This document shows, in pieces, positions 472 to 32,763 of a stretch of 32,763 bases of DNA. Origin of the DNA: a virus (Duplodnaviria > Caudoviricetes); IMG/VR virus record IMGVR_UViG_3300005805_000013, positions 1 to 32,763 of that record. One strand, 5' to 3'. Every line of letters begins with the position of its first letter. Positions within the stretch are counted from its first letter, which is position 1. The translations under genes were made by a program, and so were the position numbers. The notes under the pieces were generated by a model, which was not told the DNA's origin, did no database searches, and saw only the letters and a list, made by a program, of their open reading frames with translations.

Positions 472-600
472 ATGAAACTTTGGAGAAAATACGGTTATAG
501 ACAAATGAGTGGTCGAATCGAGGGTGCTAATCGTGCAGTGCTACCCCCAGCTCAACCCAGCAAACTACTTTTGGCTTTACTTAAGAAAGCTGGCGTATAA
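472..600 (+). CDS. Small basic hypothetical protein (42 aa, MKLWRKYGYRQ...LLKKAGV); not in the ORF track
   Basis: AGAAAGG RBS, ATG at 472, TAA at 598-600 overlapping the next ATG (TAATG coupling). Confidence 0.75.
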   Translation: MKLWRKYGYRQMSGRIEGANRAVLPPAQPSKLLLALLKKAGV

Positions 601-1346
601 TGGGACAGGCTAGACTTAGACAGGCTGAGATCGCAAAACTCAAATCAGTTGACCTGGTAGTAGATCTAGATAAGGTTGATATAGACAATATCACAGACAT
701 CAACACTTTTGTCAAATCAGTAAGTGGCTGTGACGACCGTTTCTTAGAACTAATGAAACAGCTGACTGGTAACGATCCTGAAATAGTTCGGGTAGTAGAG
801 TTTGGTGGCAAGCCCTTACAATGTATAGAAAATGCCCATATGCTTAATAATGTCGTTAGGGGTGAATGCGTCCGAGGATGGCAGATATTGTTAAGTACCA
901 ATAAGAAATATGAGCGATTATCTGAATTGAACCCTAGTGATGACCCCAGTTTGGCTAGAACGCAACGAAGATTTGGCTTCCAGGAAATCAATCAGCATAT
1001 GTTGGTTAGAGATCCCGAGTTTGGGCAGTTATGGGATAGCAGTCCATCTATTAGTGCCGGTATGCCCGATCAGTTTAGGATATTCTGGCAGGATGATAAA
1101 CTGCTGACCAAAGATGCCTTAGACTATGAAATGGTTGATGATGTATATACCTGGGGTATGAACTATTGTTATCTGCCCGTGGCTGGCAGAAGTATGTTAA
1201 GACTTAATAATGCGTCCGACATACAGCATATCCAACCAGGTGAACTATGCCCAATCAGACTAGAGCAACCAAAAGGTAGACAGCGTGATGTTGATGAACA
1301 CATTAGACGAAACGGTGTTGCAATGCTACAGCGTTCGTTTGCATAA
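600..1346 (+). CDS. Hypothetical protein with a possible transglutaminase/papain-like Cys-His-Asp core
   Basis: 248-aa ORF; pattern QCIENA...RGWQI...HMLVRD...GQLWDSSP gives spaced C, H, D. The fold call is inference. Confidence 0.6.
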   Translation: MGQARLRQAEIAKLKSVDLVVDLDKVDIDNITDINTFVKSVSGCDDRFLELMKQLTGNDPEIVRVVEFGGKPLQCIENAHMLNNVVRGECVRGWQILLSTNKKYERLSELNPSDDPSLARTQRRFGFQEINQHMLVRDPEFGQLWDSSPSISAGMPDQFRIFWQDDKLLTKDALDYEMVDDVYTWGMNYCYLPVAGRSMLRLNNASDIQHIQPGELCPIRLEQPKGRQRDVDEHIRRNGVAMLQRSFA

Positions 1347-1351
1347 CCTTT

Positions 1352-1464
1352 GCCTAGAGGCTACCTGGGTGATTTGAATAGTATTGATGGCTTTTGCCTA
1401 TTTCCTAAACAATACTATTCAGATCTATAGTTAAAACTTAGTTGCAAAGGTGTAGCCAGCAACC
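1352..1464 (+). ncRNA. Candidate pseudoknotted RNA motif, copy A
   Basis: P1 1352-57/1365-70; 16-bp stem 1371-86/1410-25; GTTGC-N13-GCAAC 1441-63; loop GGCTAC (1359-64) pairs with GTAGCC (1452-57); covaries with the copy at 32609. Confidence 0.7.
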
Positions 1465-1468
1465 AAAT

Positions 1469-1496
1469 AAAGCACTCATTTATGGGTGCTTTTTTT
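1469..1496 (+). terminator. Intrinsic terminator separating early genes from the packaging module
   Basis: AAAGCACTCA-TTTA-TGGGTGCTTTTTTT; paralogous to the terminator at 3-30. Confidence 0.85.
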
Positions 1497-1500
1497 GTGG

Positions 1501-1508
1501 CATAAATA
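1501..1508 (+). promoter_or_regulatory. Putative T4-like late promoter (CATAAATA) for the terminase genes
   Basis: ATAAATA about 20 nt upstream of the terS start, immediately after a terminator; no -35 element seen. Confidence 0.65.
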
Positions 1509-1527: not shown

Positions 1528-2016
1528 ATGTTAGACGAACAACAAATACAAGACGACCAAGTCGCACCTCCAGAACAACCCAAACAGTCCGGTGAATATC
1601 CCACTTGGCAATATCCAGAACGCCGTGAGCCACAATGGGGACAAGTAACCAAGGAAGGTTTGGTAGTTGGTAGAGGCCCTAACAAAAAGGTTATCCCACC
1701 AGATGAAGTGTATCATCTAGCCAGCCTAGGCTGTAGTGTAACTGAAATGGCCGATTGGTTTGGCGTAAGTCAATCAACGCTGAAGTATAACTTCGGCGAG
1801 TATATCAAAAAGGGCAAGGAGCATATCAAGAATAGGCTCCGTGATGCCCAAATTAAAACTGCCTTAAGTGGTAATGCGGCTATGCTCATATGGTTGGGTA
1901 AGAATATGCTTGGACAGAGCGATATGCCTGTGAACACTGAAGCCAACGAACCCTTACCGTGGACAGACAATGACATACCCAGAGACGAAGTAGGTGCTGT
2001 CCAGGACACTGACTAA
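1528..2016 (+). CDS. terS: Terminase small subunit
   Basis: HTH-like segment (LGCSVTEMADWFGVSQSTL), motif GNAAMLIWLGKNMLGQSD, directly upstream of and coupled to terL. Confidence 0.85.
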   Translation: MLDEQQIQDDQVAPPEQPKQSGEYPTWQYPERREPQWGQVTKEGLVVGRGPNKKVIPPDEVYHLASLGCSVTEMADWFGVSQSTLKYNFGEYIKKGKEHIKNRLRDAQIKTALSGNAAMLIWLGKNMLGQSDMPVNTEANEPLPWTDNDIPRDEVGAVQDTD

Positions 2017-3303: not shown

Positions 3304-4914
3304 ATGAATAACAATCTCCAAGAACTATACAATCAGGTCACCAGCACCAATATCTTATACACAGATAACCAAAAGCGTTGGTTATTCTATCTAGAAAGCT
3401 ATATGGGTGGTGATGAATATCGTCGTGGTAGCCATCTAAACCGTTACCAATTAGAAAGCGATAGAGAATATGCACAACGACTAGCAGTAACCCCATTAGA
3501 TAATCATTGCCGTAGCGTTATCAATGTATATAATAGTTTCTTGTTCCGTGAAGAGCCCGAGCGTGAGTTTGGTGACTTCAAAGATGATCCCATGCTAGCC
3601 GAGTTTCTAGAAGATGCTGATCTAGAAGGCCGTAGCCTAGACGCTGTGATGAAAGATGTAGCCACTTGGACCGCAGTGTTTGGACATACCTATATCCTGT
3701 TAAGCAAACCCAACATTGGTGCCGCAACCCTAGCAGACGAGATCGCCAATGGTGTCCGTCCTTATGTCAGCGTGCTAACACCTTTGGTAGTTTATGATTG
3801 GCAATACCAAAGAGCACCAAATGGTTATTATGAATTAACCTATTTCAAATATGCAGAAGACGACAATAACAAACACACTACAAAAATTATAGAATACTAT
3901 AAAGATCGTATCGTAACTACAGAATTAAACACAGAAAAGAAAAAAGTCCTACAGCAGATCGAAGAACCCAACCAATTAGGTCAGATACCAATCGTTATCG
4001 CTTACAATCAACGCAGTCCTATCCGCGGTTTGGGCGTTAGTGATATTAGTGATATCGCAGATCAACAGAAAGCTATCTACAATGAGCTCAGCGAGATAGA
4101 AGCAAGTATCAGACTAGACAGCCATCCAACATTAGTAACACCTGAGAATGTCAAGCTAGGCAGTGGTGCTGGTGCTATCTGTTATGTACCAGAAACAATG
4201 GATCCTGGACTTAAACCTTATACCTTACAAAACTCAGGTGCGGATATATCAGCTATCTACGCAAGTATAAATGCCCGTATAGCCAGCATAGACAAGATGG
4301 CTAACACTGGTGCAGTGCGTGCCACGGAAGCTAGAACAATGTCAGGCATAGCTATGCAGACAGAATTCCAATTGCTTAATGCACGCCTTAGTGAAAAAGC
4401 AGACAATCTCGAGATCGCAGAAGAACATATGTGGAAGATTTGGTGTGCTTACCAAGGTTATAGTTGGGACGGTGAGATAGATTATCCAGGTAGCTTCAAC
4501 ATACACGACAGCCAAGGTGAGTTTGCACAATTACAAACAGCGATGTCAGCGGCCACAACACCAGAAGCCAAAGCAGTTATTGATTATCGTGTGCGTGAAT
4601 TACTAGACGACCCAAGATGTGACTACGATCTTGACGAAGAAGGCTATGAATTGGCTGAATATCAGGCTGAAATAGACAAATTAAATGCAATAACTGAACA
4701 AATAGCGGCAAATGAACAGGTGCAGGTAATGGAATCAGTGGCGGATGGTGCTGAAACAGAACAACACGCTACCACAACACCTGAAAACAGACAATCACAC
4801 ATACAAGATATGATAATGGAAGGTTATACAGATGAAGAAATACTACAAATCCATATTGAAATCAATCAAGCGGATATTAGATCGGCTAAAGAAGCACTTC
4901 TAAATCTAGGTTAG
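3304..4914 (+). CDS. Portal protein (SPP1-like) with an acidic C-terminal extension
   Basis: Follows terL; 536 aa; motifs NHCRSVINVYNSFLF, NQLGQIPIV, GVSDISDIADQQKAI, SGIAMQ are typical of SPP1 gp6-like portals. Confidence 0.9.
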   Translation: MNNNLQELYNQVTSTNILYTDNQKRWLFYLESYMGGDEYRRGSHLNRYQLESDREYAQRLAVTPLDNHCRSVINVYNSFLFREEPEREFGDFKDDPMLAEFLEDADLEGRSLDAVMKDVATWTAVFGHTYILLSKPNIGAATLADEIANGVRPYVSVLTPLVVYDWQYQRAPNGYYELTYFKYAEDDNNKHTTKIIEYYKDRIVTTELNTEKKKVLQQIEEPNQLGQIPIVIAYNQRSPIRGLGVSDISDIADQQKAIYNELSEIEASIRLDSHPTLVTPENVKLGSGAGAICYVPETMDPGLKPYTLQNSGADISAIYASINARIASIDKMANTGAVRATEARTMSGIAMQTEFQLLNARLSEKADNLEIAEEHMWKIWCAYQGYSWDGEIDYPGSFNIHDSQGEFAQLQTAMSAATTPEAKAVIDYRVRELLDDPRCDYDLDEEGYELAEYQAEIDKLNAITEQIAANEQVQVMESVADGAETEQHATTTPENRQSHIQDMIMEGYTDEEILQIHIEINQADIRSAKEALLNLG

Positions 4915-27790: not shown

Positions 27791-27840
27791 AAATGTATTT
27801 ACTAATTTTAATTTTGGAGGTAAAAAAGAATAAATAATTA

Positions 27841-27968
27841 TGTAGCACAAAGTTCGCCATACTGAGTGTTACAGATTGGCAGGATTTCCTATTTTCTTGT
27901 CATTTCTTATTATTCCCTAAATGAGAGTAGTAACCCAAAAGCCCCATTTCTCCCAAGTGGGGCTTTTT
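27841..27968 (+). ncRNA. Candidate small RNA (about 128 nt) between a late motif and a terminator
   Basis: ATAAATA at 27830-27836, 5' stem TGTAGCAC/GTGTTACA, pyrimidine-rich middle, 3' terminator; no plus-strand ORF. Confidence 0.55.
27937..27968. terminator. Intrinsic, potentially bidirectional terminator
   Basis: AAAAGCCCCATTT-CTCCC-AAGTGGGGCTTTTT. Confidence 0.8.
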
Positions 27969-27992
27969 CTTTGTTGAAAATATTTGTCGTGG

Positions 27993-28437: not shown

Positions 28438-28721
28438 AAATTGAATTTAAGGTATTCTTAAATGAACAAGACTTCCGTAACATTAGGACGCAGTTTGGCT
28501 TCAATGAAGAAATACTTTGGACACACCAAGAAGCAGTTAAATGGTTAGATAATCAAGGATGTACCAGCATATATACATATGATTATAGTATAGCCAAAGA
28601 TGAACAAATCATAATGAAGACTTATGATGTTGATGACGAAACCGTAACTATGTTTAACCTTAAATTTCCAGAAGTATATAAACCAGTAAGAAATTATGAG
28701 GTAGTGACACTAGTAGTATAA
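28434..28721 (+). CDS. Hypothetical protein (95 aa)
   Basis: ATGA overlap with the upstream gene. Confidence 0.75.
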   Translation: MKIEFKVFLNEQDFRNIRTQFGFNEEILWTHQEAVKWLDNQGCTSIYTYDYSIAKDEQIIMKTYDVDDETVTMFNLKFPEVYKPVRNYEVVTLVV

Positions 28722-28729
28722 ATAAATAT

Positions 28730-29175
28730 AACAAACAAGGCTAAGGTTGGCAACCAATAAATGCTAGTGAATCCGTTCTGATGTGAGACGGTAGCTAATT
28801 CCGATTACTTGTTATTGGGCTTTTAAGCACTAACCCTTACTCAAAGGGCGCCTTAAATCAATCCCCGTGGGACTAATGATTTGCTTAATCGTAATGGTAC
28901 AGACATAAAAATGCTTATGTGTAATATTGACACCTGAAAGTTACACTTAAAAATCGCTGTTGGTTGGGTATGGAGCAGAGCCCAAAGCATTGTCAAATAA
29001 TACGAAATCCAACTGTCTAAGTCGGTGAGAGGACTAAGTGAATGGTTGCTAGACACTCAAATGTGGGTGTCTCGCGGCTCAAGGTTCTAGTGAATGCAGT
29101 AATAAAAACTCCAAGTCAAAGTTCAAGCGAAATAGAATATTTCGCGAAGAACAGATGTCGTAAGACATCTTCGCA
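28730..29175 (+). ncRNA. Candidate large structured ncRNA and/or replication origin (about 450 nt)
   Basis: Largest non-coding gap; preceded by TATAAATA (28717-28724); many stems, ending in GCGAAATA-GAA-TATTTCGC and AGATGTC-GTAA-GACATCT. Confidence 0.55.
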
Positions 29176-29176
29176 G

Positions 29177-29221
29177 TTGACATTAGTCAATAACTCAGCT
29201 ATAATATATGTGTGATAAATA
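29177..29221 (+). promoter_or_regulatory. Perfect sigma70 promoter with a palindrome over the -35, plus a downstream ATAAATA
   Basis: TTGACA(29177-82)-17 bp-TATAAT(29200-05); TTGAC-ATTA-GTCAA palindrome; ATAAATA at 29215-29221. Confidence 0.88.
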
Positions 29222-29244
29222 ATTATGTTATAGGAGAATAACAA

Positions 29245-29670
29245 ATGGCAATATTTAGATACAAAAAATCAATTGATATGCCCCCAAAAGAAGGGCAGAA
29301 GTTCGCGACTACTTATTATAGGCAGAGCCCTGATGAATATGATCGTACCAAACAGCATATCATCTTGGTAGCCACTGAGATAATGGAATTCGTTGATAGC
29401 CACCCGGAATGGGATGAGTTCGTCAATCAACCACTCAAGGGCTTTCCTCGTCTGAATGGCTTACCCAACTACTCAATAAATCAAATACTTTCAGACATCT
29501 TAGACCAAACCAAACAGAACAAAGACTTGCCCAGTGGTATGTTGGGTCGTTGGAGTCGCTTGTTCGCAGATACAGAATACGACATAGAGATGCTACAGGA
29601 GTTCACACCAACTACTGTCAGCCCACGGTTGTTTGAAAATCTCTTTGATCAATGGGCAGGAGCTAGATAG
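29245..29670 (+). CDS. Hypothetical protein (141 aa)
   Basis: AGGAG RBS behind the dual promoter. Confidence 0.85.
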   Translation: MAIFRYKKSIDMPPKEGQKFATTYYRQSPDEYDRTKQHIILVATEIMEFVDSHPEWDEFVNQPLKGFPRLNGLPNYSINQILSDILDQTKQNKDLPSGMLGRWSRLFADTEYDIEMLQEFTPTTVSPRLFENLFDQWAGAR

Positions 29671-29876
29671 TGTTTAATAATCCAGATTGGGATCCGCTCA
29701 AGACACTCAACGACTTGACTATAAATCTCGAAGCACAGAGCCACTTGACATTGAGTATAAGCCAGCAGTTGAATCGACTAGCACAGCAGATCAATAATCA
29801 GAACACAGCTATCACACAGATAGTGGAATACTACAATCAACTGAATAGGCGCATAGCTGAATTGGAAAAATCCTAA
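29670..29876 (+). CDS. Small coiled-coil protein (68 aa)
   Basis: TAGTG coupling; Gln/Asn/Leu heptads. Confidence 0.75.
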   Translation: MFNNPDWDPLKTLNDLTINLEAQSHLTLSISQQLNRLAQQINNQNTAITQIVEYYNQLNRRIAELEKS

Positions 29877-29970
29877 TGCCTTGGTTGGCGGGTCGTTCCA
29901 ACCCGTATTCTCCTAATATAAACCAACCAAAAGACTCCTGGGGTAGTTGGGCAAAACCCCAAACTAATTT

Positions 29971-30249
29971 ATGAAAAAACATCTTATCAAAGACTATGTA
30001 ATGATGGAGTTGGCTAACAACGCTATTATAGACATCCATACTGCTACTGACAGCCAAACGCAAACTTGGATGATACTTAAATACAACGCCACAGAATATT
30101 GGTCGTGTGAAGATTGGACGGAACCTTGGAAGATTTTTTGGGAATATGGCGAAGGAGAGGGCATATTCTATGGCACTGACGCTGAGTTTAACCAGTTTAC
30201 ACGATGGGCTGATGCGGAGCTACAAAGCATAATTTCCGACGATTTGTAG
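29971..30249 (+). CDS. Hypothetical acidic, Trp-rich protein (92 aa)
   Basis: ORF fills the gap before the next promoter; RBS weak. Confidence 0.7.
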   Translation: MKKHLIKDYVMMELANNAIIDIHTATDSQTQTWMILKYNATEYWSCEDWTEPWKIFWEYGEGEGIFYGTDAEFNQFTRWADAELQSIISDDL

Positions 30250-30290
30250 CAAAAAAGCCACAAAAACACCTCAAAAACCACAAAAAACCA

Positions 30291-30319
30291 TTGACTTTTG
30301 GTAAAAATCAGCGTATAAT
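30291..30319 (+). promoter_or_regulatory. Sigma70-type early promoter with an A-tract UP element
   Basis: TTGACT(30291-96)-17 bp-TATAAT(30314-19); phased A-tracts upstream. Confidence 0.9.
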
Positions 30320-30352
30320 GCTGTATATTAACTAAGAGAAAGGTGGTACAAA

Positions 30353-31033
30353 GTGGCTTCAACCAAAGAAATGCAAAGACGGGCTAAAGAGCGTCGTGAG
30401 TTCGAAAAACTCTTCAATGCTATTAATACCGAATGCAAGAAGATCAGTGAAACTTCTGAAAAAATCAGTGTTGATATGGACATCAATCCAGTTGACTATC
30501 GTCGAGGCAACTATTGGAATCGATTATGGGCCGATGACTATAACAAGACAGACAAAGGTAACTATGTCGAAGCCACTGAAGAAGAAGAAGGTATCCAGAA
30601 CTTTGAGATCAAATACAAGGGCAAGGCAGTAGGTTGGTTTAATCTAGTGGATATGATTGGCAGAAATCTTCATAGCCAATTTAACAGACGCGAAATGGCG
30701 GCTATTTACATCCAACCCGAATATCGCGGTTTAGGTATAGCTACGGTAGCATACATTTATGCTATGAACGATTTGGGCTGTAATATGATCGAACTTACTT
30801 ATGAACGAGCATTGAGCCGTATCCATTATTGGCAGGCTTTGGGCTTTAAGCGTGTTATGAGCAGATTTGGTCAAAATGGTAGCCGTAAGGCCTTGGCTAT
30901 ATTGATTACAGACCAAAATAACGGATTACCTTTGAACAAGAACAACATCAATCAAATACGCCAAAGATGCGAGGTAGCGGATTGGCACCACGAAGCCAGA
31001 AAGATAGGCTTGCCCATTGACCAAATCCATTAA
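30353..31033 (+). CDS. GNAT-family acetyltransferase
   Basis: Motif A (IYIQPEYRGLGIAT) and motif B (IHYWQALGF). Confidence 0.85.
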   Translation: MASTKEMQRRAKERREFEKLFNAINTECKKISETSEKISVDMDINPVDYRRGNYWNRLWADDYNKTDKGNYVEATEEEEGIQNFEIKYKGKAVGWFNLVDMIGRNLHSQFNRREMAAIYIQPEYRGLGIATVAYIYAMNDLGCNMIELTYERALSRIHYWQALGFKRVMSRFGQNGSRKALAILITDQNNGLPLNKNNINQIRQRCEVADWHHEARKIGLPIDQIH

Positions 31034-31045
31034 AGAGTGTATAAT
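31017..31045 (+). promoter_or_regulatory. Sigma70-type early promoter
   Basis: TTGACC(31017-22)-17 bp-TATAAT(31040-45). Confidence 0.85.
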
Positions 31046-31078
31046 ACACTTATTATTAACAACTAAGAAAGGCAATAA

Positions 31079-31648
31079 ATGACAAGTTATTTGGTAGTAA
31101 AAACTGGTCTTAGCGGTACAAAAGTAAACGACTTATGGCAGTTAGACATTGGTGGTGAGAGGATAGTACCACTACATCGTCTAACAGGCAACTGGCGAAC
31201 TATCATAATCGATGCCTGCAAGCAAAAGGGTGCCACCGGCACTATGAGCGTGTTAGGCTATCAAAGCAAAGAGCAAGTAGATGAGCTAGTCAAAGACTAC
31301 AATAAAAGTCTACTGGCACTGACTAAGAATATCAACTGGCAACCAGTGGCACGCATAGACGCTGATATCGAAACTATCAACAAAAAATCTGTAGAAGCAC
31401 GCCAGAAGGTATGGGAAGAATTAGCTGAATCTGGTAGGATAGTTATCACCCAACGAGACAGACGGAGTGGGCGTGTTAAACGCTATAATCTAATGAATCT
31501 AGATCACCATCGGTACCAGACCGACAAAGACTATAGAGATTGGTACAAGCGAGAGATGGCAGACATCAAACGCAGGGTCAATGCAGGTGGCGTAGATGTA
31601 TTCAAACCTCATATAACTATGATAGATTCTAACGAGGAGACAGCATAA
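31079..31648 (+). CDS. Hypothetical early protein (189 aa)
   Basis: AGAAAGG RBS; leader identical to that of ORF 97. Confidence 0.85.
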   Translation: MTSYLVVKTGLSGTKVNDLWQLDIGGERIVPLHRLTGNWRTIIIDACKQKGATGTMSVLGYQSKEQVDELVKDYNKSLLALTKNINWQPVARIDADIETINKKSVEARQKVWEELAESGRIVITQRDRRSGRVKRYNLMNLDHHRYQTDKDYRDWYKREMADIKRRVNAGGVDVFKPHITMIDSNEETA

Positions 31649-31854
31649 TGAGATCATTGAAGTGTGGTTTAGCATCATACGACCAAAAAGTAGGTAGTTT
31701 GGCAATGCTTGACTCTATCATTGCCCAATGGAATATAAACCAAAAGCGTGGGCTTGGTAATGATGATTTCACAGAATTGCTCGATATGTTTAGGGCTAAT
31801 ACAATTAGTTACTTAGACTTTTTGGATACCTTGATTGAGAAAGGCGCAGAATGA
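31648..31854 (+). CDS. Hypothetical protein (68 aa)
   Basis: GAGGAG RBS, TAATG coupling. Confidence 0.75.
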   Translation: MRSLKCGLASYDQKVGSLAMLDSIIAQWNINQKRGLGNDDFTELLDMFRANTISYLDFLDTLIEKGAE

Positions 31855-32093
31855 ATCTAATGCAAGATTATATTGAACAATGGCAGGCTGATGGGCATAT
31901 TTGGGGACAAGAAGCTGAAGGCACTAATAGCCAAAGACTTCAAGCCGATAGTTTATACCCGTTGGTTGTAGCCAAACTTCACCAGGCTGGTCTGTTAGAA
32001 GAATGCGGTTGTTCGAGACGCATTTGGGATTATTGTATAGGTGATTTCGGCAGTAATGCTGTTGATGAAATCATTGATGAACTAGTTTGTTAA
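31851..32093 (+). CDS. Hypothetical acidic protein (80 aa)
   Basis: ATGA overlap, GAAAGG RBS. Confidence 0.75.
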   Translation: MNLMQDYIEQWQADGHIWGQEAEGTNSQRLQADSLYPLVVAKLHQAGLLEECGCSRRIWDYCIGDFGSNAVDEIIDELVC

Positions 32094-32105
32094 GGAGGCC
32101 GCAGA

Positions 32106-32297
32106 ATGAAAAACTATAGGATTGTTTATCGTGAAGACGATAGCCCTTGGACAAAAAGCCTTATAGTGGAAAGTAATGAAACAGAAACGCAAGTTAGAAA
32201 ATGGTGGACTGATCAGCATAGCACTTATATGGGTCCAGGAGTTACGAGATGCTCTGTAGATGTTATGTCAGTAAAGGAAGTAGAGGCCGCAGAATGA
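32106..32297 (+). CDS. Hypothetical protein (63 aa)
   Basis: TAAGGAGG RBS. Confidence 0.8.
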   Translation: MKNYRIVYREDDSPWTKSLIVESNETETQVRKWWTDQHSTYMGPGVTRCSVDVMSVKEVEAAE

Positions 32298-32509
32298 GGT
32301 TAGTTGGCAATCGGTTAGATAATATCATTGGAAAACATCACGAGATCGATGGTGAAATACTACGAGCCATATGGGGATATGGTAGTGATGATAATGGATT
32401 ACTAATATGGATAGATAAACAACAAAATCCCAAATACAAAGCAGGTGTATGGTTTAATAGCAAAAATACTATTACCAAATGTTATAGTCCTTTTGAAAAG
32501 GTTGTATAA
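32294..32509 (+). CDS. Hypothetical protein (71 aa)
   Basis: ATGA overlap and GAGG RBS favour a start at 32294 over 32249. Confidence 0.72.
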   Translation: MRLVGNRLDNIIGKHHEIDGEILRAIWGYGSDDNGLLIWIDKQQNPKYKAGVWFNSKNTITKCYSPFEKVV

Positions 32510-32601
32510 TGGACGAACTAGAATTCTGGCAAACTTATCAGCAATGGGAAGAATATTTCGCCTCTTTAGTTAAAAATAAACAAAAAGAGCCCCAATCCTA
32601 A
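32509..32601 (+). CDS. 30-aa peptide MDELEFWQTYQQWEEYFASLVKNKQKEPQS
   Basis: TAATG coupling and AAAGG RBS; TAA at 32599-32601. Confidence 0.6.
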   Translation: MDELEFWQTYQQWEEYFASLVKNKQKEPQS

Positions 32602-32608
32602 CTAAAAT

Positions 32609-32685
32609 GCCTCGAAACTGCCGGGGCGGGGTGTATAGTTCCACCCTTCCTTATAGACCTAGTTGCAAGGGTGCAGTTAGCAACC
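32609..32685 (+). ncRNA. Candidate pseudoknotted RNA motif, copy B
   Basis: P1 GCCTCG/CGGGGC (32609-14/32622-27); loop AACTGC (32616-21) pairs with GCAGTT (32673-78) inside GTTGC-N13-GCAAC (32662-84). Confidence 0.7.
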
Positions 32686-32763
32686 TAAAAAAGCACTCTT
32701 TGAGTGCTTTTTTTGTGGTTGACTTTTGGCCGAAATGGTGCTATAATAGCTATATTATTAACA
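32685..32763 (+). repeat. Direct terminal repeat, right copy
   Basis: Identical to 1-79. Confidence 0.95.

Follow-up and report, generated by a model that had tools for sequence, protein, structure and literature searches.

We describe a pseudoknotted RNA motif of a small clade of freshwater phages; it represents a real and apparently uncatalogued RNA family, and its structure is well supported except for one helix, here called S1. The motif was analysed in IMG/VR record IMGVR_UViG_3300005805_000013, a complete circular phage genome whose positions 1-32,763 represent the window (the whole stretch of DNA analysed, 32,763 nt). A previous sequence-only reading had placed two copies at 1352-1496 and 32609-32714, and both sequences and coordinates proved correct; we refer to them as copies A and B (Table 1). 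Since the record is circular, with ends that overlap by 79 nt when the two ends of the window are compared, the copies lie only about 1.4 kb apart. The motif is a candidate gene-independent 3′-UTR processing module, located between the stop codon and the terminator of early transcription units, and a small self-cleaving ribozyme is tentatively our first choice among several readings. The predicted role, in that case, is likely that of cutting or capping the message and freeing a small RNA.

Table 1. Coordinates of the two motif copies and of the features flanking them in the window.
Feature	Position	Strand	Description
248-aa ORF 5′ of copy A	600-1346	+	Stop TAA at 1344-1346; no PHROGs/Pfam family
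Copy A P1 hairpin, 5 bp	1353-1357/1365-1369	+	Loop: A1358 and pseudoknot 5′ strand GGCTAC (1359-1364)
Copy A P2	1371-1425	+	Long variable hairpin directly 3′ of P1
Copy A linker, 15 nt	1426-1440	+	Proposed S1 5′ strand ACYY at 1436-1439
Copy A P3, 5 bp	1441-1445/1459-1463	+	13-nt loop
Copy A P3 loop	1448-1451; 1452-1457; 1458	+	Proposed S1 3′ strand; pseudoknot 3′ strand GTAGCC; A1458
Copy A intrinsic-terminator-like hairpin and T-run	1469-1496	+	Common to relatives without the motif
Late-promoter-like site CATAAATA	1501-1508	+	5′ of terS
Terminase small subunit (terS)	1528-2016	+	
30-aa ORF 5′ of copy B	32509-32601	+	Stop TAA at 32599-32601
Copy B P1 hairpin, 5 bp	32610-32614/32622-32626	+	Loop: A32615 and pseudoknot 5′ strand AACTGC (32616-32621)
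Copy B P2	32628-32647	+	Short hairpin, unrelated in sequence to copy A P2
Copy B linker and P3 region	32648-32684	+	Linker 14-15 nt; proposed S1 5′ strand at 32657-32660
Copy B P3	32662-32666/32680-32684	+	5 bp
Copy B P3 loop	32669-32672; 32673-32678	+	Proposed S1 3′ strand; pseudoknot 3′ strand GCAGTT
Copy B terminator-like hairpin and T-run	32690-32714	+	Recurs at 6-30 via the end overlap
Sigma-70-type promoter-like site, 11/12	32719-32747	+	Directly 3′ of copy B terminator

The copies follow a common plan, in which the P1 loop consists of an A and six bases, P2 comes immediately after P1, and a linker of 14-15 nt leads to a 5-bp P3 whose 13-nt loop is formed by ARRGGU, six further bases and an A. 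The two blocks of six bases were proposed to pair with each other, with three compensatory changes in 6 bp, and this is what we found: all 6 pairs are Watson-Crick in each of copies A and B, and 3 of them differ on both sides between the copies. Pairing of the loop of one copy with that of the other is poor (-1.9 and -2.6 kcal/mol, versus -8.2 and -6.1 kcal/mol within copies). When a third full copy from a close relative (locus L003, positions 4401-4515) was included, 97.8% of the 93 cells of the alignment were paired and 9 of the 34 pairs were altered on both sides; none of 500 shuffles matched this covariation and slid partners were paired at 36-46%, in a control that ignores relatedness and uses a structure drawn from the same sequences. 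The three stretches, terminator included, also fold better than their shuffles (z of -5.25, -2.78 and -3.81), and a sequence-free descriptor, fitted to the copies after the fact, gave 6 matches in 200 one-strand shuffles of the window, never two in the same shuffle.

Covariation across the three full copies, which involves P1, the base of P2, P3 and the loop-loop helix, supports a selected RNA tertiary structure, as had been suggested from two. With only three full sequences, two of them from one genome, the invariant bases are inseparable from shared descent. Two finer points of the sequence-only reading were not borne out. The U-G wobble of P1, described as conserved, is replaced by a C-G pair in the third copy, and conservation does not extend to the outermost pair of P1 either. 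The TATAG string cannot be considered a conserved element, because its register differs between A and B and it reads TAAAG in the third copy; what is conserved in the linker is its length and its 3′ end, ACYYA.

The linker end provides the proposed strand of the fourth helix. Base pairing of its ACYY with the RGGU in the loop of P3 is possible in all three copies, where one change affects both sides of the helix and another a single side. We considered S1 as tentative, because a register of this kind turned up in 6.7% of shuffles of the linker columns. A descriptor requiring S1 had 10 matches in 1.06 Mb, all corresponding to these three copies, and 0 in 200 shuffles. If S1 forms, the fold would tentatively be modelled as a nested double pseudoknot with the strand order P1a, A, PKa, P1b, P2 hairpin, linker, S1a, A, P3a, two bases, S1b, PKb, A, P3b.

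The third copy was found among 28 terL-related loci, five of which (L003 included) have 90-95% identity, and it carries two two-sided changes in P3 besides the P1 change reported above. Contigs from seven sequencing runs supply further variants. One contig, X11, has 26 differences and 5 insertions. All of these insertions fall within P2, together with 23 of the 25 listed substitutions, and P2 can by hand still be folded as a long hairpin. Outside P2, the changes affect the optional outer P1 pair and position 1462 (A1462G, by which a P3 pair passes from U-A to U-G without being lost; X15 and X16 have it too). Single letters of X11 may be errors, because its depth is about 4. Together with the unrelated P2 sequences of A and B, this agrees with the earlier idea of a swappable P2. 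X14 is identical across the compared stretch, and in contigs of X4 and X15 the 3′ half of the motif and the terminator are followed by a different early promoter, which represents a fourth context.

Wider searches were carried out by pattern and by covariance model. The exact core pattern had no match in IMG/VR; a relaxed P3 pattern had 10, of which the one true match was the L003 record; a pattern of P1 plus GGUG had 47 (38 distinct ones scored), with the L003 record again as the one true match. None of 45 matches in JGI metagenomes was true, GTDB genomes gave no match and GenBank phages and plasmids no real match. Among the 60 loci with the terminator pattern the motif was present only in an already known record, and no new motif was seen among 141 of about 470 loci with the promoter pattern. 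The covariance model (R2) recovered only its three seeds among 93 sources, the next match (E 0.037) being a locus preselected by pattern, and among the 50 records scanned out of 87 it found one with the motif. The structure is kept in the third copy, and the covariance-model search brought up no further homologue.

The motif is absent from a complete relative with 94% identity in terL (G004) and from another whose sequence spans the whole early region (G002). Because the wider searches added nothing and these two genomes lack it, the motif is, as far as the compared sequences indicate, rare, limited to one small freshwater phage clade, and dispensable or optional; this narrow distribution limits its general weight. 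Part of positions 1-2100 is present in 20 DNA runs of 9 studies, and the labelled runs among them are lake, freshwater, aquaculture or unspecified metagenomes; two of the runs may correspond to the source sample. Rfam 15 gave no match at the gathering score over the whole window, and at E 10 only below-cut-off matches of weak terminator type or unrelated to the motif, in line with the statement that the motif could not be assigned. No description of it was among the literature titles listed. Short motif words were unmatched in 3 of the 6 supplementary files of a survey of viral candidate RNAs (Fremin 2023, PMC10690425), and the motif may possibly be part of that set as an anonymous candidate.

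The position of the motif relative to genes is very regular. In the three copies the stop codon, always TAA, and the start of P1 are separated by 6, 8 and 5 nt, and P3 ends 6 nt 5′ of the terminator in all of them. The upstream genes are mutually unrelated: the 248-aa ORF in A, the 30-aa ORF in B (a homologous ORF of G002 has no motif behind it) and, in L003, a 140-aa protein with an I-TevI-type DNA-binding domain. As there is no strong promoter directly 5′ of the motif, we infer that it represents the tail of the upstream mRNA. The 248-aa protein has weak YunG/transglutaminase-like look-alikes, and Cys75, His133 and Asp146 are invariant in all 4 sequences available (three other proteins are related to it); it is possibly a papain-fold enzyme.

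The terminator following both copies had been described as paralogous. It is indeed present after both, but it is not specific to the motif: judging from the relatives, it is the generic terminator of the clade and occurs without the motif, as in L001-L004, which have the same terminator and site 5′ of terS. Given three unrelated upstream genes and the absence of the motif at the same terminators in relatives, a gene-agnostic module fits these sequences. Downstream of the terminator there is a sigma-70-type site in B, L003 and X4/X15, and CATAAATA in A. The CATAAATA word precedes several structural genes in this genome and in its relatives, and we take it to resemble the T4 late promoter.

These observations bear on the proposal that the motif controls its terminator, with read-through at copy A entering the terminase genes. 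In such a riboswitch or protein-sensing attenuator, the GGUG of the unfolded knot would pair with the 5′ arm of the terminator and allow read-through. The corresponding duplex can be drawn in B, L003 and A (-10.0, -8.4 and -4.8 kcal/mol, respectively), and for B, if pseudoknots are ignored, a transcript that stops short of the terminator 3′ arm adopts it as its minimum-energy fold; it is not chosen, however, in truncated A or L003, and in full transcripts the terminator has a pairing probability of 1.0 and the antiterminator of at most 0.0001. Moreover, riboswitch control of read-through into the terminase is unlikely because a separate promoter or late-promoter-like site lies behind each terminator, and read-through control would serve little, given that relatives place the same terminator and site before terS with no motif. 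The downstream units have no function in common, the upstream genes are unrelated, and the motif has no consistent position 5′ of functionally related genes as a transcription-attenuating riboswitch would. We consequently regard control of the terminator as quite improbable.

Even less credit can be given to translational recoding, that is, to a pseudoknot that meets the mRNA entry of the ribosome and so promotes stop read-through or frameshifting. The distance of 5-8 nt between stop codon and motif equals the spacer length of known recoding pseudoknots. TAA is, however, the stop codon in all three cases, the read-through frames differ relative to the motif, and the read-through peptides are unrelated and closed after 9-28 codons; on these grounds this reading was rejected.

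A packaging RNA of the phi29 type was also considered. In that RNA two complementary loops covary, as here, and one copy of our motif adjoins a packaging gene; the phi29 RNA has a closing three-way junction, which the motif lacks. The reading was rejected, because this phage has ordinary terS/terL, two of the three copies are not beside terS, and a complete relative is without the motif. Type III antitoxin RNAs consist of tandem pseudoknot repeats followed by a terminator and then by a toxin gene. The motif, unlike these, is a single unit with neither tandem repeats nor toxin gene, and no ToxN/CptN-like match was found among the ORFs scanned, so that this candidate was rejected too.

The closest likenesses are with two self-cleaving ribozymes. 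For the comparison with glmS we take its last strand to be P2b. If S1 forms, the motif would share with glmS a double pseudoknot in which a variable hairpin follows the first strand, and its order read from the pseudoknot 5′ strand would correspond to P2.2a-P1-P2.1a-P2a-P2.1b-P2.2b-P2b (PMC7125110, PMC8495972). The glmS core places P2.2 at 2-7/52-56, P1 at 8-25 and P2.1 at 28-30/43-45 (PMC7125110; see also PMC10810187). Without S1 the glmS-like strand order disappears. The motif differs from glmS in that an extra P1 clamps the 5′ strand and the joining strands are much shorter, it has neither glmS core sequence nor a model match, and it lies in 3′ UTRs of unrelated phage genes and not 5′ of glmS.

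The pistol ribozyme (PMC4604425, PMC8495972) combines P1 and a pseudoknot formed by its loop with a closing stem of 5 bp, and cleaves between P3 and P2. The likeness is given by a 5-bp P1 whose loop pairs inside a downstream 5-bp stem, here through a 6-bp covarying helix, and it extends to the phage setting and to the independence from the neighbouring gene. The motif has no counterpart of pistol P3 and of the two-nucleotide cleavage junction (in all three copies a single A follows the pseudoknot strand), it has an extra variable hairpin after P1, its linkers differ and lack the three conserved adenosines, and the Rfam pistol model gave no match at E 10. Because the P3/cleavage-junction part is missing, we do not consider the motif a pistol ribozyme. 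HDV-like, twister, hatchet, hammerhead and hairpin ribozymes were likewise not among the Rfam 15 matches, either at the gathering score or at E 10. In any case, shared topology is not equal to shared function.

The ribozyme reading would work as follows. The upstream mRNA would carry the motif as its tail; in the fold, P2 and P1 would stack with the loop-loop helix, and the 4-bp S1 (ACYY with RGGU) would pack alongside, so as to form a pocket lined by the unpaired and invariant A1358, A1440, A1446 and A1458. The cut might occur near the motif 5′ end, around G1357-A1358-R1359, a guess drawn from the glmS analogy alone. Once cut, the mRNA would have lost its terminator hairpin and would presumably be shorter-lived; the cut would also free the downstream piece as a stable small RNA of 110-145 nt with a 5′-OH. 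A conserved knotted core with one disposable stem (P2) supports this reading, such a build being usual for small ribozymes. The glmS P1 tolerates deletions (PMC7125110), and self-cleaving ribozymes of bacteria are described in the neighbourhood of phage genes and as able to act from a 3′ UTR (PMC6765202). Against it, the first base of the pseudoknot strand, beside the guessed site, varies (G or A), and the models of known ribozymes have no match even at E 10. It may also be a more specific object, namely a new structural class in which a pistol-like 5′ hairpin sits on a glmS-like double pseudoknot, moves between the cassettes of a probably helper-dependent lake phage and cuts the mRNA just behind the stop, a candidate on which we would place slightly less confidence than on the ribozyme reading in general. 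To our knowledge, self-cleavage assays on new phage RNA motifs have mostly been negative.

Nearly as likely, and still doubtful in itself, is a passive nuclease roadblock or scaffold, which would yield the same product: the knot would stop a host 5′-to-3′ exonuclease, in the manner of xrRNAs, or shield the transcript end, and a stable 3′-UTR small RNA with P2 as a replaceable arm would accumulate. The start of all three copies just past the stop codon, their end at the terminator, the long-range pseudoknot that clamps the 5′-most hairpin and the free exchange of P2 all agree with it. The xrRNAs of flaviviruses and dianthoviruses also have a pseudoknot at the start of the 3′ UTR, occur in more than one copy per genome and leave a stable 3′ RNA, as would result here. 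They have a three-way junction around the 5′ end that is absent from the motif, which moreover has no Rfam match and belongs to a DNA phage of a bacterial host, its resistance being a prediction. Bacterial RNase J1 is blocked in vitro by a flaviviral xrRNA (PMC5760640), which favours the same reading. On the other side, RNase J in the host is an assumption, and the terminator hairpin already guards the 3′ end. The P2 loops have no sequence in common, and the best complement that any copy has in the compared part of its genome measures 10-11 nt, so that no cargo or target is evident; neither the late non-coding region nor the rest of the genome is notably complementary to the motif.

The anatomy of the motif favours ribozyme and scaffold over a decoy. 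In the latter case, the fold itself would be the signal, as a decoy or ligand for a protein of the host or of a helper phage, with two copies raising the dose. We consider this rather improbable, although the early expression context, the independence from the neighbouring gene and a patchy presence typical of arms-race loci are in its favour, together with a phage that may rely on another one. No partner gene travels with the motif, tandem repeats or a toxin gene as in type III antitoxins are missing, and the motif has no promoter of its own.

As for the phage, its nearest isolates have only about 48% identity in terL. The virion module is full (terS, terL, portal, scaffold, capsid, tape measure, tail and fibre genes), and one region is occupied by short early cassettes, all of which have a promoter-like site of sigma-70 type. 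Polymerase, primase, helicase, integrase and a gp55-like sigma were not recognisable among the window ORFs, and because of this lack of replication genes and gp55-like sigma the phage may depend on another phage; possibly it is a satellite of a T4-like jumbo phage. A host search found no prophage or host genome. TAAATA late-promoter-like words occur 5′ of several structural genes, though no gp55-like sigma is recognisable. The early promoter pattern and the terminator style recur in phage records of 290-365 kb, all four of those tested having a weak gp55-like match; among three large records tested, the promoter pattern was present in G059 only.

Other observations concern the regions around the motif. 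The early region (29177-32747 and 33-1496, and its equivalents in L002-L004) consists of promoter-ORF(-terminator) cassettes whose content varies among close relatives, and contigs link a common promoter and terminator to differing neighbours. At 28719-29220, behind a TATAAATA site, there are about 450-500 nt with no convincing ORF, which are 81% identical over 448 nt in G003, appear as patches in L028 and are swapped for a different non-coding stretch in G004; this stretch, with no Rfam match, is in both motif-carrying genomes and is absent from G002 and G004, and is a candidate large non-coding RNA or origin. A TAAATA site, three hairpins and a terminator at 27831-27970 are kept in G004 and G002 with structure-preserving changes and gave no Rfam match above the cut-off; they represent a candidate late small RNA. 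More distant relatives have a different conserved non-coding element 5′ of terS (L005:5320-5559 and L026:4442-4649), with a TAAATA site, hairpins, a terminator and a further structured stretch.

Natural small self-cleaving ribozymes fall into no more than about ten known classes, and their bacterial and phage roles are described as largely open (PMC6765202). The motif is short and offers three natural variants with orthogonal pseudoknot strands, and a test would take days. Should it block RNase J and not cleave, it would be a natural phage counterpart of the xrRNAs of eukaryotic viruses; no such phage counterpart was among the literature titles listed. If it cleaves, it would represent a new ribozyme class and a direct test of 3′-UTR processing in phage gene control.
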